Shown: positions 7,453 to 25,634 of the stretch, in pieces
How the letters are laid out: each line of letters opens with the position of its first letter
Numbering within the stretch: the first letter of the stretch is position 1
Source: a virus
Lineage: Duplodnaviria; Caudoviricetes
Virus record (IMG/VR): IMGVR_UViG_3300036820_000642
Location: 1-56,119 of that record
DNA: 56,119 nt
Strand: one strand, 5' to 3'
The notes under the pieces: generated by a model
The model's input: the letters and a program-made list of their open reading frames with translations, nothing else
Told to the model about the DNA's origin: nothing
Database searches by the model: none
Program-made: the position numbers and the translations under genes

Positions 7453-7711
7453 TGTGCAGGTTCTTATCAAGCAGTCATGCCCGCAGGGGCTCACTGGTGA
7501 TGACCTTGCGGAACTGTTTGGTGATGGTGAACGGCTCCGGGAGTTCAATCATTGGATGCGTGGGCAGACAATGAGTGTCTGTGATGGACGGGAATACAAC
7601 TATGCGGAGAAACGGTATCAGCCGACTAAATGCGCGGGGCACCCGCATGGCGTAGTGGCGTACCCGTGGGATGTCGAACGTTTCTTGCTGGGACTGCCAG
7701 TAATTGACTAA
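7442..7711 (+). CDS. Hypothetical protein
   Basis: FNHWMRGQTM...YPWDVERFL; overlaps neighbours. Confidence 0.6.
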   Translation: MTTNVQVLIKQSCPQGLTGDDLAELFGDGERLREFNHWMRGQTMSVCDGREYNYAEKRYQPTKCAGHPHGVVAYPWDVERFLLGLPVID

Positions 7712-8075
7712 GGGGGAAGTGATGGATGCTGCGATCAAAGAACAGTGGATCAAAGACCTACGCTCCGGTGAGTTCGAGCAGGGCCGCGGGAAACTGGAAG
7801 AGGACCACCAGTTTTGTTGCCTCGGGGTGCTGTGTTTCCGCGCTGCGGAGGCAGGTATTACTAGCCGGGTCGTGGAGGCTAACGGTGTCGTGACGTATGG
7901 CGGCATGGATGGTGTGCCTCCTAGTGAAGTCCTGAAGTGGGCCGGGTTGAATATTTATGAGGCGCAGGGCCGTTATGCGCCGGCTGATGGTGAAGAACGC
8001 TGGCTCACTATGGACAATGACAGAGATCGTCATGGCTTCGATCAGATCGCGGACACGATCGAGAAGCATTTCTAG
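7704..8075 (+). CDS. 'ALRSG...CCLGV' family, copy 4
   Basis: WIKDLRSGEFEQG...FCCLGVLC...DND...FDQIADTIE. Confidence 0.85.
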   Translation: MTKGEVMDAAIKEQWIKDLRSGEFEQGRGKLEEDHQFCCLGVLCFRAAEAGITSRVVEANGVVTYGGMDGVPPSEVLKWAGLNIYEAQGRYAPADGEERWLTMDNDRDRHGFDQIADTIEKHF

Positions 8076-9699: not shown

Positions 9700-9902
9700 C
9701 TCCAGAGGAAAAGATCGGCAAGAAGCTCGGCGCATTCATAGCCGAGGCGGGTGTTGGTGCGCTCGGCGCCTGGTGGCTGACGCTCGCTTGGCCTTCCCTG
9801 TTCGACCGTCACCCCGGCTTCTGGATCATGTGGGCTGTCGTCTCGATCGCCGAATGGATTATTGCTGTGTGCATGAAGGGAGAACTGTTGACCAATGGTT
9901 GA
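9696..9902 (+). CDS. Small membrane protein
   Basis: Two hydrophobic helices. Confidence 0.6.
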   Translation: MTPEEKIGKKLGAFIAEAGVGALGAWWLTLAWPSLFDRHPGFWIMWAVVSIAEWIIAVCMKGELLTNG

Positions 9903-10578
9903 GTTTGAACCGATACTCGTTCACCGGTCTTTCGGGAAGATCTCTCGACTGTTCCGGGACGGCGTGTACACGGAGAAGATCGACGGTACGCAACTGGGTG
10001 TCGGTGTGATGCTCGTCAAGGATGGGATGCGCGGGCATCCTGACCTTGACTCGCCTGCTGTGAAGCTCGGGAAATACTCGGATGGCACCGAGTACGCGAT
10101 TTATGCGCAGTCCCGTAACCGGCTGATTTCCCCGTTTGACGACAACTACAGTTCTGCGGCGTGGGTGCATGACAACGCGGAGACGCTAGCGGCCGACCTT
10201 GGTCCCGGCCTCCATTTCGGTGAATGGTGGGGGCATGGTATCCAGAGGAACTACGGGCAGCGGCAGAAATTTTTTTCACTTTTCAACGTCCAAAAGTGGG
10301 AGCCGGTAGCGGAGTCTTTCAAGACTCCGAATCTCCGGACTGTGCCTGTGCTGTCCAGGTTCACGTTCAGCACCGCGGAGGCAAGCCGCGTGCTCACCGA
10401 TCTGGCGATGAATGGTTCCCATGCTGCTCCGGGTTACATGAACCCGGAGGGGATCGTTGTGTTTCATCCGGCGTCACAGTCTCTGTTTAAGGCGACGATT
10501 GACAACGACTCGCGACCTAAGTCGTTGTCGCAGCGGCGTCGCCTGGCTGTGGTGGATGGCGAGGATCTTGCCGCGTGA
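9895..10578 (+). CDS. RNA ligase (Rnl2-like nucleotidyltransferase)
   Basis: Motif I EKIDGT, SRNR, FGEWWG, LFN, EGIVV, FK. Confidence 0.85.
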   Translation: MVEFEPILVHRSFGKISRLFRDGVYTEKIDGTQLGVGVMLVKDGMRGHPDLDSPAVKLGKYSDGTEYAIYAQSRNRLISPFDDNYSSAAWVHDNAETLAADLGPGLHFGEWWGHGIQRNYGQRQKFFSLFNVQKWEPVAESFKTPNLRTVPVLSRFTFSTAEASRVLTDLAMNGSHAAPGYMNPEGIVVFHPASQSLFKATIDNDSRPKSLSQRRRLAVVDGEDLAA

Positions 10579-11960: not shown

Positions 11961-12766
11961 GTCAGCGGATTGTCGTGGTATCGGATATGCAGATCCCATA
12001 CCACGATGAGAATGCGGTGCTGGGGCTCGTCCGGTTCATTTCTGATTTTCAGCCGGACATGCTCGTCAACGTCGGTGACGATATTGACTCGCCGCAGACC
12101 TCCTATTGGTGTAAGGGGAAGGCTGGCGAGTATCAGGCTACGTTGCAACGCGACATTGACCAGACACGGCATGTGCATGGGTTGTTTCGTGAGGCGCTGG
12201 GCGCGAAACCCTACCATGTGTCGCGGTCGAATCATGGTGACCGGACGGGCCGGTATATCGCCCAGTATGCGCCTGCACTCCAGAAGCTCCGGTGTCTGGA
12301 GTTGCCGCGCCTGCTCGGCTATGACGAGCTGGGTATCCAGTACCACCGTGAGCCGTTCCCGGTGGCTCCCGGCTGGGTGTGCGCTCACGGGGATGAGGGG
12401 ACGCTCTCGCTCATTGCCGGGCGAACCGCTGGGCTCTTGGCTGAGAAGTGGGGCACTAGCGTTGTTTGCGGTCACACACACAGGGCCGGTATCACCAGCC
12501 GTTCATACGGGTACGGCGGGCACGTCAACCGCACAGTGACCGGTATGGAAGTCGGCCACCTCATGTGCATGGGCGAAGCCGGTTACCTGCCTGGCGGTTA
12601 CGGCGACTGGCAAGAAGCCTTCGGCATCCTTTACGTCTCCGGGGAATCAGTGTCACCTGTTCTCGTGCCCGTGCACGAGGGCGGTTATTTCACAGTGGAG
12701 GGGGTGGAATATGGAAGTGTCGCAAGCCGTGATGTTCACGCCTGGGACAATGAGTCGTCTCCATGA
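11957..12766 (+). CDS. Calcineurin-like metallophosphoesterase
   Basis: SDMQIP, GDDID, SNH, HG, GHTH motifs. Confidence 0.9.
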   Translation: MSQRIVVVSDMQIPYHDENAVLGLVRFISDFQPDMLVNVGDDIDSPQTSYWCKGKAGEYQATLQRDIDQTRHVHGLFREALGAKPYHVSRSNHGDRTGRYIAQYAPALQKLRCLELPRLLGYDELGIQYHREPFPVAPGWVCAHGDEGTLSLIAGRTAGLLAEKWGTSVVCGHTHRAGITSRSYGYGGHVNRTVTGMEVGHLMCMGEAGYLPGGYGDWQEAFGILYVSGESVSPVLVPVHEGGYFTVEGVEYGSVASRDVHAWDNESSP

Positions 12767-13388
12767 CCTCATCCCCGAAATCGCATCTAAAAGACGCAGA
12801 TTCTACCGGGGGGTATGTCGTGATGATCTTGAAGCGTCCATGTGGCTCGCAGCCTGCGAACAGGCCGCGAAGGTGGAGGCGCTGTCCGCTGAGGGACCTG
12901 TGGCCGCGCTGGAGGTTCTGCTAACACGCGCCGCTACGGCGGCGCAGGCTGCCGAGGAACGCGAGTACAGGGCACGGAAGGCGCTACGAGCCGGTTACGC
13001 GCCGAGGGATGAACAGTTCTACAGTGTCGGCGCGTTGCGCCGTCTCCTGCCCGCCTACCTCGATGGCGGGGTGTCTGCGGCGCCGCCGCAGGGCAGGGAC
13101 GGCAGCGCGGGCGCCAGGCCCACGGGCGCCGAACAGTACGGTGATTGGCTGTGCACCATGACTGACCTGGATACTGCGCTCAGCGCGGTCTCTGGCTATC
13201 ATCGCGGCATCTTGACGCGTTATTTCGAGTTCCCACAAGGTAAGTCGGGGTGGTCCCATCAGGAGATCTCCAGTGCGCTCGGTATCCCACCGGAGACGCT
13301 GCGGAAACGTGTATACCGGGCGCTGAAAGCGGTACAGAGGGAGCTTGGCGGCGATTCGCCGTATCGGGGAGACCGGCCGGGTTCTTGA
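12711..13388 (+). CDS. Sigma-factor-like DNA-binding protein (region-4 HTH)
   Basis: RDDLEASMWL; C-terminal SHQEISSALGIPPETLRKRVYRALK. Confidence 0.75.
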   Translation: MEVSQAVMFTPGTMSRLHDLIPEIASKRRRFYRGVCRDDLEASMWLAACEQAAKVEALSAEGPVAALEVLLTRAATAAQAAEEREYRARKALRAGYAPRDEQFYSVGALRRLLPAYLDGGVSAAPPQGRDGSAGARPTGAEQYGDWLCTMTDLDTALSAVSGYHRGILTRYFEFPQGKSGWSHQEISSALGIPPETLRKRVYRALKAVQRELGGDSPYRGDRPGS

Positions 13389-16777: not shown

Positions 16778-16867
16778 CTGATTCTCCCTATTGTTGATTC
16801 TCAATGTTGTCCAGTACACTAAAGGCCACACATCGAGGTCGGTGTGTAGCCTATGGCCTACTGGAAT

Positions 16868-17032
16868 TCAGCGCACGTCCGTGCGCCACTCTTCAATGAA
16901 CCGTTTCGTCTCCTGGTCATAGCGGATGATGTGGCTTCCGCCGAAGGTGACCATGGGGAACTGGCCGGAGATGAGGTTTTCTTGATCACTCTTGGTCAAG
17001 AGATTGTCTATCTCGTCTGTCACATCTTTCAT
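16868..17032 (-). CDS. Small hypothetical protein (54 aa, MKDVTDEID...; not in ORF track)
   Basis: ATGA-coupled to upstream gene; stop abuts hairpin. Confidence 0.6.
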   Translation of the reverse strand: MKDVTDEIDNLLTKSDQENLISGQFPMVTFGGSHIIRYDQETKRFIEEWRTDVR

Positions 17033-17262
17033 GGAATGGGTACCTGTTCCCCGTTCTCAAACATCGCTACCGGCGTCGGCAACACATCGGACTCAAAGTG
17101 GTTGTCGTTGTACACGCATGCCGTGACCGGACACTCTGTGCCCTGGACTACTTCTATCCGGCCGCGCGTGTGGTCGGCCGCTGCCTGGTAGGCCTCATCC
17201 TTCGACACAGCCACCTTAACGTAGTGGCCTCCAGACAACACCGTGTATGTGGTGTCTAGCAT
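17029..17262 (-). CDS. Hypothetical protein
   Basis: ATG after GGTGGAG; overlaps upstream stop. Confidence 0.6.
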   Translation of the reverse strand: MLDTTYTVLSGGHYVKVAVSKDEAYQAAADHTRGRIEVVQGTECPVTACVYNDNHFESDVLPTPVAMFENGEQVPIP

Positions 17263-17501
17263 CCTGCCACGTCTCCACCTTGGGACTGGCAGTACGGGGA
17301 CACCACAGTGTTGTTGTGGTGCCCCAGCTCTATACCGGCCGCCACACCCGCGATGACCGACACAGCCAGGACGAGCACAGCGATCCACGCCACAAGGAAC
17401 ATGGCGTTCCGTGTCTGCCGTGTGTTCTGCTCAATCATGGCGAGATGCTGCCTGATCTCGCGTTCTGACGTGTTGTCCGCGGCAGGCGTGTTGTTTTCCA
17501 T
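17256..17501 (-). CDS. Single-TM membrane protein
   Basis: FLVAWIAVLVLAVSVIAGVAAGI; start-associated motif. Confidence 0.75.
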   Translation of the reverse strand: MENNTPAADNTSEREIRQHLAMIEQNTRQTRNAMFLVAWIAVLVLAVSVIAGVAAGIELGHHNNTVVSPYCQSQGGDVAGC

Positions 17502-17580
17502 ATTGATTCTCCAATTCCTCTGGTTAGTTCTGCCCTAGCGGGCACCAAACCAGCCGAGGAATCGGCTGGAATGGAACACG

Positions 17581-17823
17581 CTAGCGACTCTTAAGACCAA
17601 TGAGAATATGCCACTCACGCAATGCGGAGGGGTGGCTTTCACAGTGCGCTACGAAAGTTTGTGTCGCACAGTCATAAACCGACCATTTACCCGCACCCAT
17701 GGGCACCGTGGCATACCGCGCAATAAGCTTCTCGTTAATTCCTGACGATATACTCATTACAGACCAACTTCCGCTTTCAACGCTGCCAACTCCGTTGGCG
17801 TTATAGATGCCATGCTTATCCAT
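17581..17823 (-). CDS. Early hypothetical protein
   Basis: Start-associated motif; stop within hairpin arm. Confidence 0.7.
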   Translation of the reverse strand: MDKHGIYNANGVGSVESGSWSVMSISSGINEKLIARYATVPMGAGKWSVYDCATQTFVAHCESHPSALREWHILIGLKSR

Positions 17824-17938
17824 TGATTCTCTCCCCTTTATTGTGCGTTTCTAGCCGTACTCCAAAATGGTCACTGTGACAATAACCTCACACTCTAGGA
17901 TGTGAGAATATGCTCACTTTGACCATTAAGGAGAAAGG

Positions 17939-18247
17939 CTAGACCCCAACAGGATTAACAACGAAACGTTGAATGCTGTAATCCCGCATCAAACCTGCGA
18001 CATGCCAGTAAGCGGAATTACCGCGGTCGTCGACAACCTTCAAGAACAGATCACGGATATCATCGCTGCGAATCGAGACTGTCTCGACTCCATCCCGATA
18101 GCGGACAATCGCGCGAGCATGCCGCACAACCGCCGGCCAATCCACACGACCCCAAATAACCGTGGCGTTGGTTTCCGCGGCGCGCATGACTTCATATAGT
18201 CCGGCCGCTTCCGCGAGCGTGAGATTGCCCCAATTGGTGGTTCCCAT
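17939..18247 (-). CDS. Early hypothetical protein
   Basis: Start-associated motif; stop within hairpin arm. Confidence 0.7.
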   Translation of the reverse strand: MGTTNWGNLTLAEAAGLYEVMRAAETNATVIWGRVDWPAVVRHARAIVRYRDGVETVSIRSDDIRDLFLKVVDDRGNSAYWHVAGLMRDYSIQRFVVNPVGV

Positions 18248-18345
18248 TTGATTCTCTCCCCTCTGTTAGATACCTCCGTTTAGGCACCTACAGCAAAAAA
18301 GGATCAACACCACAATGGGTGTTGATCCTTCTCTACTGTCAGCGT

Positions 18346-18564
18346 CTAGGAAATGATGCTCACACACTCCCAACACGTAACCTCACTACGATGCGTCGCC
18401 AGATGCCCAGCCTCATCGCCTGGGCGCGTCTCCGCGGACCCGCACACGGGTTCTGCGCGCCACAGAGGCCCATCGTCCAGCCAATCGGACAGGTCCACAG
18501 CATGAACCGTCCCATCGTCATACTCCACACCCTCATAACCCGCAGGTGTATGAATGCTAACCAT
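18346..18564 (-). CDS. Early protein with H/C Zn-finger-like motif
   Basis: VHA...PVCG...VTCWEC; start-associated motif. Confidence 0.7.
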   Translation of the reverse strand: MVSIHTPAGYEGVEYDDGTVHAVDLSDWLDDGPLWRAEPVCGSAETRPGDEAGHLATHRSEVTCWECVSIIS

Positions 18565-18662
18565 GTTGACTCTTGTCTCCCCTCTTACGTGTGCTCTCAT
18601 CTAGGCACACTCCACAATGCCCGCACTACCGAGGTAGCGCATTGGGCACAGTGGGGCAGTGT

Positions 18663-18983
18663 CTAGCTGTCCGAGTCGTCCGCGAACATGGCCAGTACCT
18701 CTGACCAACGTCCCAACTGTTCGCCCATCATTTCCGCGTAGATGCGAGCGGCTTCCGCATGCGTCTTAGGCGTACCCGTAGTCAGGGCATCCTGTCCGCG
18801 GGTGACGTACTCGTACTTGTGGACCACATGCCCATCAACCACGAGCGCCGTATCCCATCCGCCGGCGTAGGCCTGGCCTACCGTGCCTCCACCAGCCTTA
18901 GACACATGAATCGTCATGATGTTAGGCGCAGCATCCACGGAGTATTCTGGCGAACCCGAGTAATCAAACTCGAAAGCATCCAT
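18663..18983 (-). CDS. Early hypothetical protein
   Basis: KAGGGTVGQAYAGGW...TGTPKTHAEAA; start-associated motif. Confidence 0.75.
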   Translation of the reverse strand: MDAFEFDYSGSPEYSVDAAPNIMTIHVSKAGGGTVGQAYAGGWDTALVVDGHVVHKYEYVTRGQDALTTGTPKTHAEAARIYAEMMGEQLGRWSEVLAMFADDSDS

Positions 18984-19062
18984 GTGATTCTCTCCTCTTT
19001 GCGTAGAGTCCTGATTGACTCAACACCCCACCCTACAGGGTGGGGGATTCAACCAACCAACC

Positions 19063-19488
19063 TCAATCCTTCGGCACATACGCAACCCACTTACCGCGCG
19101 ACACACGCGCATGATCATGATTCGCAGTAGCCGCATACGCGCCATTCACAAGCACATCGGCGCCCAACACTGCGCAGCTTGACCACCCAAGCAAGCGATT
19201 GAATTCATAGTCGGGAATGTCGTCACAGTGACTCTGCACAGTCCACATGCCCATGTGCTTAAAGTCGGTAGACCGATATAGATACCCGACTACCTCACCC
19301 GAGGTAAGGTCGATAACCGCCAATTCATGTCCTGTATCGTCATACGCGTAGCGGACACGCGCAATCGGCTTATCCCAACGCTGGCCGCTAGGCCCAGATA
19401 CGCACATGCGATACAGGACACAGGAACCCTCCCAATCCACTAGTAGTTTGTGGATATTGGCAGCATTCCGTAGCGCTTTAGCACCCAT
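19063..19488 (-). CDS. Early hypothetical protein
   Basis: Start-associated motif. Confidence 0.7.
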   Translation of the reverse strand: MGAKALRNAANIHKLLVDWEGSCVLYRMCVSGPSGQRWDKPIARVRYAYDDTGHELAVIDLTSGEVVGYLYRSTDFKHMGMWTVQSHCDDIPDYEFNRLLGWSSCAVLGADVLVNGAYAATANHDHARVSRGKWVAYVPKD

Positions 19489-19575
19489 TGATTCTCGTCT
19501 CCTCTCAACTGTTGTCACTCAACAGTCAACAGCGCTCCACTCACGGTGGAGCCCTGCAAACCATTGACCAACCAC

Positions 19576-19818
19576 TCACGCCGCAATGTCTTCCAACGGC
19601 ATCACCCGCGCCCAACGACGCGCCGCGCCGATATCCGCTGGCGTGTCCAACTCGTCAACCACTGCCATGGGATGGAGGCGTATGAGTCCGTCAACCGCAC
19701 TCGATACACATCCGAACGGAGTAGGCCCAACAACATGCCTGCCATCCGCCAGGAACATTTCCGCCCACACTGGGCAGTCATCACCCGGTAGGGTGAACAC
19801 GTAATACTGCTCATTCAT
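19576..19818 (-). CDS. Early hypothetical protein
   Basis: Start-associated motif. Confidence 0.7.
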   Translation of the reverse strand: MNEQYYVFTLPGDDCPVWAEMFLADGRHVVGPTPFGCVSSAVDGLIRLHPMAVVDELDTPADIGAARRWARVMPLEDIAA

Positions 19819-19902
19819 GTTGACTCCCTTGTCTCCTCTTTGGTTAGGCACTAGGTACCTACAGCAACGCGCCTCCACACAGAGGCGCACCACTGTCAAC
19901 AC

Positions 19903-20394
19903 CTAGTCCGGAATCTCCGACCGACGATTGGTCCCCAAGAACCAATCCAAAACCCGTATCGCATGACACATAGACAGCCGCTCTATCGCGTGCTCGGGCA
20001 TGTCCCGCACAGCAGCGAGCAACGCAGCTTGCTTAGCTGCACACAGCTCCGTCACTGTCCTGTCTTTGATGTCATCCCAAGTGGTACCTGTGTGCAGGTC
20101 ACGTGTGACCGCATCGGTAATCACAGGAATGGACACGTTGTCCAACGGTCGCCGGGCACGTAGGCGCATGTCCACGATGTCAGACACCGCATTCATACGC
20201 TCTTGCCATGCTTCCCAATCACCAGGATCGGGCACGCCCTGCAACAGGTACTCGTTCGCGTCCACATAGTCATGCAACGCAGAGAACGAATTGACATCCG
20301 CCGGCACATCCATCTCCGGGTTCACGATGTCAGAATCGATAAGAGCCATCACCCTATCGGCCCATACCTGTAGAGCACGTTCTTGTATTCCCAT
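19903..20394 (-). CDS. Early protein (VP..V.SFSALHDYVDANEY motif)
   Basis: Start-associated motif; conserved-looking LHDYVDAN motif. Confidence 0.75.
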   Translation of the reverse strand: MGIQERALQVWADRVMALIDSDIVNPEMDVPADVNSFSALHDYVDANEYLLQGVPDPGDWEAWQERMNAVSDIVDMRLRARRPLDNVSIPVITDAVTRDLHTGTTWDDIKDRTVTELCAAKQAALLAAVRDMPEHAIERLSMCHAIRVLDWFLGTNRRSEIPD

Positions 20395-20468
20395 GCTGAT
20401 TCTCTCCTCTCGATTGGCCCTAACAGCCATGGCAGCGACCCCACACCGTGGGGTCACCACCAAACCAG

Positions 20469-20708
20469 CTAGGACAAATCAGCCCGACCATTCCTAACCG
20501 CATGGTCGGCACTACCCAACCCATGAACGAGCAAGGCAGCATCGCGCAGACTGCGCAGTGTCAGCACCTCACCTCCGGCCAGCGTGACAATCCTCGCGTC
20601 ATAGACGCGATACCAGCCACGGATGAGATGCGTTTCCTTGTGATGATCCAATGCACGGTTCACTGTCTCGTCAGTGCACTTGTGATCACCGATCTTGACC
20701 GATGCCAT
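20469..20708 (-). CDS. Early hypothetical protein
   Basis: ATG just after upstream TGA; stop in hairpin arm. Confidence 0.65.
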   Translation of the reverse strand: MASVKIGDHKCTDETVNRALDHHKETHLIRGWYRVYDARIVTLAGGEVLTLRSLRDAALLVHGLGSADHAVRNGRADLS

Positions 20709-20710
20709 GA

Positions 20711-20794
20711 TCAGTACCCGTAGCCGTTCGCGAGAATGGCCACAGCGATGATCAGAACCCACGCAGACACGACAACGATCATCTTGGTAGACAT
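20711..20794 (-). CDS. 27-aa single-TM peptide MSTKMIVVVSAWVLIIAVAILANGYGY (first gene of the early operon)
   Basis: Strong SD GAGAGGAGAGG; fully hydrophobic core. Confidence 0.65.
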   Translation of the reverse strand: MSTKMIVVVSAWVLIIAVAILANGYGY

Positions 20795-21107
20795 CGCCTC
20801 TCCTCTCGTTTGGGACGCCACAGAGGCGCCCTCAGAACGCGCCTCCACAGAGGCGCATCCTCAAGGCTCATGGCATAGCTTCGCCATGAACCCCAATCAG
20901 AGGAGAATCAACCCACTATTCACGAATACTCCCCCCACACCGGCTTTCCGTAGTATCCAAGGTCCACGTCAGCAAACACGCTCCAAACCCCTACAGGGGT
21001 AAGTCTCACGCTGGTCTGGCACTCGCAGGCTTACGGCACCGCCGTAGTTCCATGCTTGGGCTATAGGTCGCCAGCCCACACCTACAGGGCTGGCGTTTGA
21101 CTACCGG

Positions 21108-21150
21108 TATGGAGTTATCAAGCACCAAACCGGCGCCTCCGAGAGGCGCC
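21108..21150 (-). promoter_or_regulatory. rrn-like boxB hairpin plus boxA antitermination element
   Basis: GGCGCCTC-TCG-GAGGCGCC hairpin then GTGCTTGATAACTCCATA, resembling actinobacterial rrn boxA (TGCTTGAGAACTCAA). Confidence 0.55.
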
Positions 21151-21183
21151 CATCCGGCCGAACCAACCAGCCGAACAATCCAC

Positions 21184-21212
21184 AGTCTGACTTACTCTTA
21201 CAATCCTGTCAA
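21184..21212 (-). promoter_or_regulatory. Strong leftward early promoter
   Basis: TTGACA-17 bp-CAGACT. Confidence 0.7.
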
Positions 21213-21675
21213 CGTGACCTACATCACACCAGGAGTAGAGCTCGCAAGATGGTATGAGGGCATGTGTGTAGCACATGATGTAGCACACTTAGATGTCTAA
21301 GTATCATGCCTGGTCGTGCATGCTCGACTATATGTCGAATGTGAGGCGCCTACCTATACAGACATATGCGACAAAGCTGGGCACCAATATTGCTGCTTAA
21401 CGAGTCGTCATAATGTAATGATCGTTAACATTGCAGCAAGAGGGCAGTTGTCGAATGTTTTAGCGGGGTGTGGGGATGGGCGCGCAGCGGTTGCCCGCAA
21501 TATTTTTTGGGTTGGTATTGAATGGTTTGCCGCCCTTGTTGTGGGCGGTTATTGTGCCATTGTGGTATGGTTTTTATTGGTGGCCTGTGGGCCGTTGTTT
21601 GTGTTTTTGTGTGTGTGTTTTTGGTGGTGTTTTGGAGTGGATTGTAAAACTTTTGGGTTTGATAGGGCGAGATTG

Positions 21676-22020
21676 GTGCCGCAGTTGGCGGCACGGAATG
21701 CGAGGGTTTGCTGCCGTTGCGATAGGTGGTTTGCGGCTCGCTCGCGGGAGCGGGTGTGCGATGGGTGTTCACCTGCGAAAACGCGCACTTTGAGGGCGCT
21801 TAAAGGCAATGACACCGGACCGGCCCTATGGATGCGCAAAACCCCAGGTCAGAAGGGGGTCGAAGCTGCCTTTGTGGGCGTGTATTCCGATGACCTGGGT
21901 TTGACGTTCCGCTGCAAGGTGTCTGACCCTCGCGCCGGGGGCCTGCTATGCCGCGTCTTGGCCTATGAAGAGGCCGCGAGGGACCAGCGGAAACACCGCG
22001 CCCGGTTTGACGCTGCGTAG
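21676..22020 (+). CDS. Zn-finger hypothetical protein
   Basis: CCRC...CDGC; upstream part of the ORF track call is G/T low-complexity DNA. Confidence 0.5.
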   Translation: MPQLAARNARVCCRCDRWFAARSRERVCDGCSPAKTRTLRALKGNDTGPALWMRKTPGQKGVEAAFVGVYSDDLGLTFRCKVSDPRAGGLLCRVLAYEEAARDQRKHRARFDAA

Positions 22021-25150: not shown

Positions 25151-25223
25151 AGCGGGGTGTTAGCAGTGGTAGCTTGCCGGACTCATAATCCGGAGGTCGC
25201 GGGTTCGATCCCCGCCCCCGCCA
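25151..25223 (+). tRNA. tRNA-CAT, initiator (fMet)-like
   Basis: Cloverleaf: AGCGGGG/CCCCGCC (1:72 mismatch), CCGGA-CTCATAA-TCCGG, GCGGG-TTCGATC-CCCGC; no encoded CCA. Confidence 0.85.
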
Positions 25224-25235
25224 CTTGTCAATGTG

Positions 25236-25537: not shown

Positions 25538-25611
25538 GGGGGCCGTAGCTCAGCAAATAGAGCGCACGGCAAAGGCCGTGAGATCACAGGTGTAAATCCT
25601 GTCGGCCCCCA
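25538..25611 (+). ncRNA. tRNA-like RNA lacking a functional anticodon loop
   Basis: GGGGGCCG/CGGCCCCC, GCTC/GAGC D-stem, CACGGC-AAAG-GCCGTG, ACAGG-TGTAAAT-CCTGT. Confidence 0.75.
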
Positions 25612-25634
25612 CAATAATCACCACTAGGGATCAA

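Follow-up and report, generated by a model that had tools for sequence, protein, structure and literature searches.

The stretch of DNA analysed here (the window) comprises the 56,119 bp of IMG/VR record IMGVR_UViG_3300036820_000642, a complete provirus record whose phage is called W below. W genes run rightward between 0.3 and 13.4 kb and leftward between 13.8 and 20.8 kb; beyond about 21.3 kb, and on into the structural module, their direction is rightward once more. A putative 5' untranslated leader at the head of the leftward block contains a short pyrimidine tract, the RNA of which would be complementary to a motif repeated at the starts of the downstream genes. The relationship between this tract and the start motif is the subject of the present work. 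The features involved are the following.

20795 to 21215, minus strand: putative leader, 5' untranslated, for the leftward early operon, with a presumed 5' end; no open reading frame (ORF) with a Shine-Dalgarno (SD) sequence is read there.
20898 to 20911, minus strand: pyrimidine tract, the anti-start-motif element, in a single exact copy; its RNA would read UUGAUUCUCCUCUG.
20891 to 20919, minus strand: extended element, with flanks AAUAGUGGG on the 5' side and GAUUGGGG on the 3' side that would pair additionally with the 20394 and 20794 start regions.
20812 to 20832, 20839 to 20856 and 20869 to 20888, minus strand: three GC-rich hairpins separating the tract from the first SD; the minimum-energy structure contains them, as does the centroid.
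20797 to 20807, minus strand: SD of ORF1, GAGAGGAGAGG, the nearest predicted partner of the tract.
20711 to 20794, minus strand: ORF1, first gene of the leftward operon, a hydrophobic peptide of 27 amino acids with a strong SD; its stop lies 2 nt ahead of the next ATG.
20469 to 20708, minus strand: ORF2, 79 amino acids, with no SD of its own and no Pfam or PHROG match.
20395 to 20422, minus strand: start region of the gene for a 163-amino-acid protein, CCAAUCGAGAGGAGAGAAUCAGC-AUG, the best-matched partner of the tract (predicted duplex -27.3 kcal/mol).
16778 to 19845, minus strand: remaining start motifs of the array, at the starts 19818, 19488, 18983, 18564, 18247, 17823, 17501 and 16777, with a GC-rich hairpin upstream of each.

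The length of about 380 nt given for the leader in an earlier note on this DNA is an inferred one; the first ORF starts at 20794. ORF2 is probably translationally coupled to ORF1.

The start motif and its gene array

The small genes of the leftward block are each preceded by a GC-rich hairpin and the shared start motif. Motif-bearing starts, which were read by eye and not taken from a gene caller, fall into two forms: AGAGGAGAGAATCA-N0-2-start at seven genes (20394, 19488, 18983, 18247, 17823, 17501 and 16777, the last with TTG) and a longer variant, GAGGAGACAAGRGAGTCAAC-ATG, found on the minus strand at only two array genes, 19818 and 18564. The core AGAATCA is present in 13 copies in the window for 4.68 expected, a number reached in none of 100 shuffled sequences. 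Eight of these copies are on the minus strand within 16779-20403, each 0-2 nt ahead of a start codon, and one is on the plus strand in the leader, at 20904; the remaining four (5174+, 27550+, 37682- and 47849-) have no purine-rich SD upstream. The spacer part of the motif, GAATCA, has no counterpart in the SD core, and the motif is missing from an uncurated set of 13 starts in the structural module.

Repeated start motifs, different in each phage, were also observed at other loci: ACGGCAGAGAACGGAGAA in L211 (7021-11254), ATCGGAGGTAGGGAA in L212 (1211-5065) and CCGACCGGAGGTAACCG in L003 (3700-4350). Phage-specific start motifs seem to be common in actinophage early regions.

The leader tract as a complement of the start motif

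The 14-mer CAGAGGAGAATCAA has exactly one occurrence in the window, at 20898-20911 on the plus strand, and no ATG, GTG or TTG is found in the 30 bases that follow it on that strand. The inverted copy of the motif lacking a start codon that the earlier note had described in the leader is therefore present. The tract offers a contiguous Watson-Crick complement of 8-10 nt to eight of the nine motif-bearing starts and of 5 nt to the ninth (18564); the pairing length put at 8-11 nt in the earlier note is slightly reduced. At the SD of the first ORF (20794) the contiguous complement is 8 nt. In a control with random 14-mers taken from the window, 1 of 19,997 reached eight start regions.

The specificity of this complementarity was assessed by ranking each 20-nt window, on both strands, by its mean duplex energy against the nine start regions, the direct antisense of each region being left out. 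The W tract ranks first among 27,910 windows, with a mean of -17.7 kcal/mol for a background of -6.8 +/- 2.3. Tolerating up to three mismatches brings no enrichment of the 14-mer (6 matches where 3.48 are expected, a count attained by 12 of 100 shuffles), because the array copies have two extra bases (GA). The complement is not limited to the SD core: as had been proposed, it includes the spacer, here the W-specific GAAUCA(A), which is present at eight array starts and not at the first ORF, and it is the best complement of this kind in the record. With the extended element, predicted duplex energies are -27.3 kcal/mol for the 20394 start region and -20.2 for the first ORF (20794); with the tract, they range from -17.1 to -21.6 kcal/mol for the other array starts, from 19818 to 16777.

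Conservation of the tract and its joint change with the start motif

A search with the W terminase gave 69 viral loci, nine of them at 71-78% identity. The leftward block and its leader are common to W and four of these nine (L138, L142, L140 and L135), and all four carry CUCUCACUCUCUC at the homologous place in the leader. Among the four, tract identity is 93-100% compared with 57-84% for the 80-nt flanks on either side; W compared with the four gives about 55-62% at this alignment scoring. W and L135 have flanks in common, AATAGTGG immediately on the 5' side and GATT..CATGG immediately on the 3' side, which supports the W element as a homologue of the tracts of its relatives. The first genes of the four relatives are unrelated small membrane protein or lipoprotein genes, except in L140, where there is none: its first gene encodes an AAA_5 ATPase, which is gene 2 in L138 and L135, and 13 of the 14 tract positions find their complement in the start region of this gene.

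The relatives have a start motif that differs from that of W, GAGAGAGAGG, and a tract, CCUCUCACUCUCUC, that matches it; in L138 the motif is followed by N6-9 and the start codon. With one mismatch allowed, the 17.6-kb L138 locus has 11 gene-strand copies of GAGAGAGAGG and a single inverted one, which lies in the leader about 90 nt ahead of the first ORF; the whole 43-kb record holds two more plus-strand matches, at 16.1 and 16.7 kb. The L138 tract is the best gene-strand window at its locus for complementing the array starts. The L138 DUF3631 gene is 49% identical to that of W, and most of the other L138 cassette genes differ from those of W.

Tracts and arrays fit best within each motif type. 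The mean duplex energy of the W tract is -18.6 kcal/mol against the W array and -15.5 against the L138 array, whereas that of the L138 tract is -18.7 against its own array and -11.7 against the W array. For the tracts of the four relatives the corresponding ranges are -11.7 to -14.4 kcal/mol against the W array and -17.6 to -18.7 against the L138 array. As in W, the match involves bases beyond the SD: in L138 and L142 the tract complement has GAGAGGUUAGG at its end, resembling the GAGAGGUUAAG, GAGAGGAUAGGU and GAGAGGCUAAGA found at their array genes, and the flanks of these two tracts complement GGUUA-type spacers. Conservation in relatives and covariation of motif and anti-motif had been proposed as a check, and the comparison bears them out: at the level of sequence, the element is conserved in four other lineages and tracks the start motif of each phage.

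Other searches returned no close relative of W. None was found in phage records; the viral contigs with the 163-aa protein (15 loci, GC content about 70%) show at most 80% identity over short pieces and none is close to W; those with the DUF3631 protein include no close relative either; and the 13 loci in genome contigs have a terminase identity of at most 44%. An exact-motif scan of viral contigs gave only single chance matches. Among 58 loci with relatives of the AAA ATPase the tract is found only in the two already known, and a search with a two-part leader pattern returned three lineages, all already known. Two DUF3631 relatives, L211 and L212 (31-36% identity), have their own start motifs and no inverted copy; L211 is almost devoid of a leader, and L212 is truncated where its contig stops. 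CU tracts of another kind occur in L137 and L143.

Three loci that carry an AAA ATPase gene (L245, L248 and L251) contain a superficially tract-like element, TTTTCTCACTTTYCC, which was treated as unrelated as it lies upstream of a promoter-like site. In the same loci a conserved TTTTCTCACTTTYCCARGTGTCCAGTCAG (L245 2975-3005, L248 2963-2995, L251 2845-2875) is located upstream of a promoter-like TTGAC...TATAAT.

An 81-aa membrane protein encoded by W at 17256-17501 on the minus strand has a homologue (40% identity) at 7640-7882 on the plus strand of L138, where it is the first rightward gene across the control region. This cassette has changed strand between the two relatives.

Predicted partners of the tract

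When leaders are folded only to just past the first AUG, pairing between tract and first SD is predicted in all five lineages, with a probability of 0.7-1.0 over most bases. For the W leader (about 405 nt; fold -187 kcal/mol, z -4.4 relative to shuffles, the L138 leader giving z -5.0) this probability is about 1.0, and the pairing is found in both minimum-energy and centroid structures. It corresponds to the inverted repeat I2 (20799-20814 / 20891-20906), in which tract and ORF1 SD are 81% complementary. The hairpin GCGCCTC-loop-GAGGCGC, the arms of which are themselves an SD/anti-SD pair, occurs in three copies, two in the leader (20839-20856 and 21133-21149) and one between array genes (19869-19888); none is expected by chance.

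By predicted energy, the best bimolecular partners are mostly array genes. In W, the 20394 start region exceeds the first ORF and the array mean (-27.3, -20.2 and -18.6 kcal/mol, respectively). In L138, genes 2-4 (-21.4, -20.8 and -21.2) exceed the first ORF (-14.9), as gene 2 does in L135 (-21.9 compared with -14.6), and in L142 the best or next-gene duplex and that with the first ORF are about equal (-14.3 and -13.7).

Folds of longer transcripts (650-800 nt, 802 nt in W) that reach the next gene give mean pairing probabilities of 0.66 for the next gene start and 0.18 for the first ORF start in W, and of 0.81 and 0.01 in L135. In L142 the two halves of the tract are split between both starts (0.44 each), and in L138 the values are 0.0 for the next gene start and 0.59 for the first ORF start. 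When the first SD is absent, the tract is 35-85% unpaired. One possible reading of these folds is a long-range helix between the tract and the first conserved gene's start region, with the variable small membrane-protein gene in the loop.

Proposed mechanism and alternative explanations

The reading favoured here, to which we give about an even chance, is that the leader anti-SD tract pairs with start regions of its own operon and occludes ribosome binding. On the transcript the tract would spell the start motif of its own phage in reverse complement, SD and spacer together, and would base-pair with sites of translation initiation on that same molecule. Two candidate partners stand out: about 100 nt downstream, the SD of the first ORF, which encodes the small membrane peptide, and about 500 nt downstream, the start of the next gene, which is the better matched of the two. 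Ribosomes would be kept off these starts for as long as the helix stayed closed and the RNA intact, and early translation could in this way be gated or timed. We infer that the tract is transcribed as part of the leader, that it pairs in the cell and that translation is repressed.

Several observations weigh against this proposal. A promoter scan of 20795-21300 revealed no promoter-like site. The first rank of the W tract is held by a thin margin (-17.72, with the runner-up at -17.68). No homologous tract was found in five of the nine close terminase relatives (L136, L137, L139, L141 and L143), the upstream DNA of all of these except L136 being covered for only 1.5-3 kb. Only two motif states occur among the five lineages, which reduces the tract-motif match essentially to one evolutionary change; this change, though essentially single, spans many bases. 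The predicted partner varies with transcript length and between lineages, and RNAalifold applied to the five leaders gives no convincing common fold, with a consensus of only -2.9 kcal/mol. Finally, a CU-rich stretch near GA-rich SDs will always be predicted to pair, which makes the folds alone weak evidence.

A small RNA might instead be at work, consisting of the leader or of a piece of it left by processing or termination, which would accumulate, pair in trans with all motif-bearing starts and silence or time them. This possibility, which we regard as doubtful, is consistent with the better match of the tract to array starts than to the first ORF in W, L138 and L135, with the inclusion of the array-specific spacer in the complement, with a strong hairpin located 5-15 nt after the tract in all five lineages, and with the 35-85% of the tract left unpaired in the absence of the first SD. 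A precedent is the P1 c4 antisense RNA, encoded in the c4-icd-ant operon according to passages of PMC8198154. However, each transcript would carry one tract for some ten targets, the hairpins have no U-tails, there is no sign of a discrete stable fragment, and the fold with the nearest partner competes with pairing in trans. Apart from a tRNA gene mentioned below, no Rfam family, C4 included, was matched at threshold in the window, and at E values up to 5 the matches in 20300-21900 are at chance level only. Since the tract folds on the nearest SD in all five leaders, or on the next gene in two of four longer transcripts, pairing in cis is at least as likely as pairing in trans. The complementarity described in the earlier note holds, as do the conservation and covariation that it named as a check; the leader-derived small RNA silencing the whole cassette set that it had proposed is a hypothesis that the analysis leaves unsupported.

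It is rather unlikely that the tract is read as an RNA or DNA site in its own right (for Rho loading, antitermination or protein binding, or in a stoperator-like manner), its complementarity to the motif being secondary. Such a site would account for the island of conservation at the tract and for the hairpin common to L138 and L142 just 5' of it, which has a conserved loop, GAAACGUCACAGUGCG, and compensating changes in the stem. C also exceeds G around the tract in L138, L142 and L140, which are moderately C-rich there. The tract regions of W and L135, in contrast, are G-rich and not C-rich, and a recognised site leaves the joint change of the W tract with the W motif and spacer unexplained. 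Two specific candidates were rejected. A Rho utilisation site (C-rich and G-poor over about 80 nt) does not agree with the composition around the W tract (C 0.15-0.19, G 0.33-0.37) or with that of L135. As a possible boxA of ribosomal RNA (rRNA) leaders, the stretch ACTCAATAGTG beside the L135 tract was considered for its resemblance to a mycobacterial rRNA leader; it was found once in five actinobacterial genomes, in a spacer without rRNA, among repeats of the TTGAGT/ACTCAA type, and this lead failed.

A functionless relic, that is, an inverted gene-start joint derived from cassette shuffling and kept motif-like by gene conversion, is improbable to a slightly greater degree. Cassette genes do turn over between W and L138 with joints that are uniform within each phage, and one homologue lies on the opposite strand across the control region (W 17256-17501; L138 7640-7882, plus strand). 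A relic would nevertheless hardly occupy the same position in five lineages or keep a tract 93-100% identical while its flanks diverged, and useless inverted repeats should be lost because they invite harmful inversions.

Very improbable, lastly, is a function of the plus strand, in which a good SD that no start codon follows would bind 30S subunits on a rightward RNA as a stabiliser or decoy of the STAB-SD type, given that the promoter scan shows no promoter-like site to its left on that strand, that the 7 kb to its left are occupied by leftward genes, and that no conserved plus-strand ORF or start follows the element in the five lineages, nor any in W.

Comparison with known systems

In passages of Pope et al. 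(2011, PMC3203893), the start-associated sequence (SAS) of cluster K mycobacteriophages is described as an asymmetric motif with an SD core and conservation beyond the SD, located 3-9 nt ahead of start codons (mostly ATG) in many copies of one orientation at non-structural genes. The same passages record a single inverted SAS for Anaya, Adephagia, Angelica and CrimD and give no explanation for it. The function of SAS is still called unknown in passages of articles from 2024 and 2025 (PMC11373665, PMC12699233). The W motif resembles SAS in its asymmetry, its conservation beyond the SD, its position at starts, its single orientation (8 of 13 AGAATCA copies on the minus strand at 16.8-20.4 kb) and its restriction to non-structural genes, and a single copy of opposite orientation away from a gene start is common to W, L138 and Anaya. 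Cluster K phages have, however, a different host group, and the SAS consensus GGGATAGGAGCCC is absent from W (three matches at two mismatches for 1.68 expected, none of them at the start motif). The W start motif works like SAS and is not a member of it by sequence.

The location of the inverted copy also differs: in W it is in the 5' leader ahead of the motif-bearing genes, whereas in Anaya it is near the right genome end, in the gp96-gp97 spacer. Anaya has 15 forward copies of SAS and one inverted copy (record positions 59870-59882; 29871-29883 in L292), which lies in this 385-nt spacer after a canonical terminator and about 185 nt ahead of gp97. The spacer folds with a z of -5.4, and CCUCCUAUCC is predicted to form the 10-nt loop of a GC-clamped hairpin. 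Spacers of the gp96-gp97 type are present in 182 cluster K records; in an alignment of seven of them, four have CCTCCTATCCCC, Ekdilam has CCTCCTTCCCC, and Krueger and Tierra have TCTCCCTTCCC. This side check on Anaya is a parallel and not evidence on W.

In the immI region of P1 and P7, according to passages of PMC8198154, c4 is part of the c4-icd-ant1/2 operon and c4 antisense RNA acts to block ant. The mechanism proposed here is similar in that an RNA from the front of an operon would pair on downstream genes of the same operon, and the W tract has the trait, characteristic of C4/CI RNAs, of complementing a ribosome-binding region downstream in its operon. It differs in that W has no member of the corresponding Rfam family or structure, that the host of W is probably an actinobacterium, and that the targets in W may be many genes and not one. 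The c4 target reportedly overlaps the icd ribosome-binding site, and the P4 CI RNA, a relative of c4, is said to be processed from its leader.

Anti-SD helices are well known from 5' leaders that sequester the SD, in RNA thermometers and in the expression platforms of riboswitches. The leaders of the W clade are like these in having a pyrimidine stretch in the 5' untranslated region predicted to pair on the first-ORF SD (five of five leaders). Unlike them, the helix would here bridge 85-190 nt with two or three hairpins inside it, the W tract is in addition a match for the non-SD spacer at many genes downstream, and no ligand- or temperature-sensing Rfam family was matched in W.

The stoperators of cluster A phages are repressor-binding DNA sites that block transcription, as described in passages of PMC3203893. 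They are like the W motif in forming many short, asymmetric, intergenic copies in early operons with an orientation tied to transcription; the W motif differs in coinciding with the SD and keeping a constant distance from start codons. Literature searches, which covered main texts, returned no description of a leader anti-motif in actinophages.

Control region, genome context and host

To the right of the leader lies a region that presumably holds divergent promoters, with the following features, none of them assigned to a strand.

21180 to 21460: divergent control region, AT-richer, with direct repeats, a palindrome and a repeated 10-mer.
21268 to 21287: direct repeats GTAGCACA-TGAT-GTAGCACA, operator-like; this 20-mer is exact in L138 (7391-7410) despite diverged surroundings.
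21324 to 21338: palindrome TCGAC-TATAT-GTCGA, operator-like.
21333 to 21342 and 21449 to 21458: two copies of TGTCGAATGT, operator-like.

A TTGACA at 21210-21215 was considered as a promoter and rejected, as no acceptable -10 was seen by eye. In viral contigs, the operator 20-mer (GTAGCACATGATGTAGCACA) was found in the L138 contig and in five copies of an unrelated AT-rich phage (L204, L205 and L207-L209), where it is inside an apparent coding sequence and is probably due to chance. In metagenomes it was found in the L138 contig and in L219, the leader of which is, by eye, the same as that of L138. The approximately 300 nt at 21400-21700, to the right of the control region, are strongly G/T-rich and C/A-poor on the plus strand, with runs such as TTTTTGGTGGTGTTTTGG, and plus-strand ORFs across them have no Pfam or PHROG match.

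The rightward block at 0.3-13.4 kb includes matches to a PD-(D/E)XK nuclease, a DnaB-like helicase, an RNA ligase and a sigma-70 region 4 protein. The RNA ligase family protein and the sigma-70 region 4 protein are encoded on the plus strand at 9895-10578 and 12711-13388, respectively, and a phage sigma factor could render some W promoters non-canonical. The leftward block ends with a gene for a DUF3631 protein, and its other genes are small and have no match in Pfam or PHROG. A tRNA-Met (25151-25224, plus strand), the only Rfam match in the window, and a further tRNA-like call, its anticodon undetermined (25538-25612, plus strand), lie just upstream of the terminase region.

The W terminase is 39-42% identical to those of phages of Arthrobacter and other actinobacteria, and distant relatives of it are present in genomes of Actinomadura, Micromonospora, Nocardioides and similar organisms; these similarities suggest that the host of W is probably an actinobacterium. 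The only sequencing run with W DNA is from a soil metagenome, which may be the source of W.

Implications

On comparative sequence grounds, the W element appears to combine an SAS-like start motif, an inverted copy of it and an anti-SD leader; what is new is the comparative support that earlier inverted copies lacked. The W clade indicates that an inverted copy can be conserved in position and can change with the start motif, its spacer included. Joint change of tract and motif is the signature expected of RNA-RNA pairing and provides a testable model for the translational control of early gene arrays.

More generally, although we consider this doubtful, the start-associated motifs of actinophages might be accompanied by a dedicated anti-motif RNA that would pair with the whole motif-bearing set and set the timing or level of early translation. 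Its carrier could then be, and this is offered as speculation, the early leader in the W clade and the hairpin loop of the conserved, structured right-end spacer in cluster K1 phages. If true, such an anti-motif RNA would supply the function for SAS-type motifs that has been missing since 2011. Cluster K1 phages have a host with established genetics and published RNA-seq, and the idea could be tested there.

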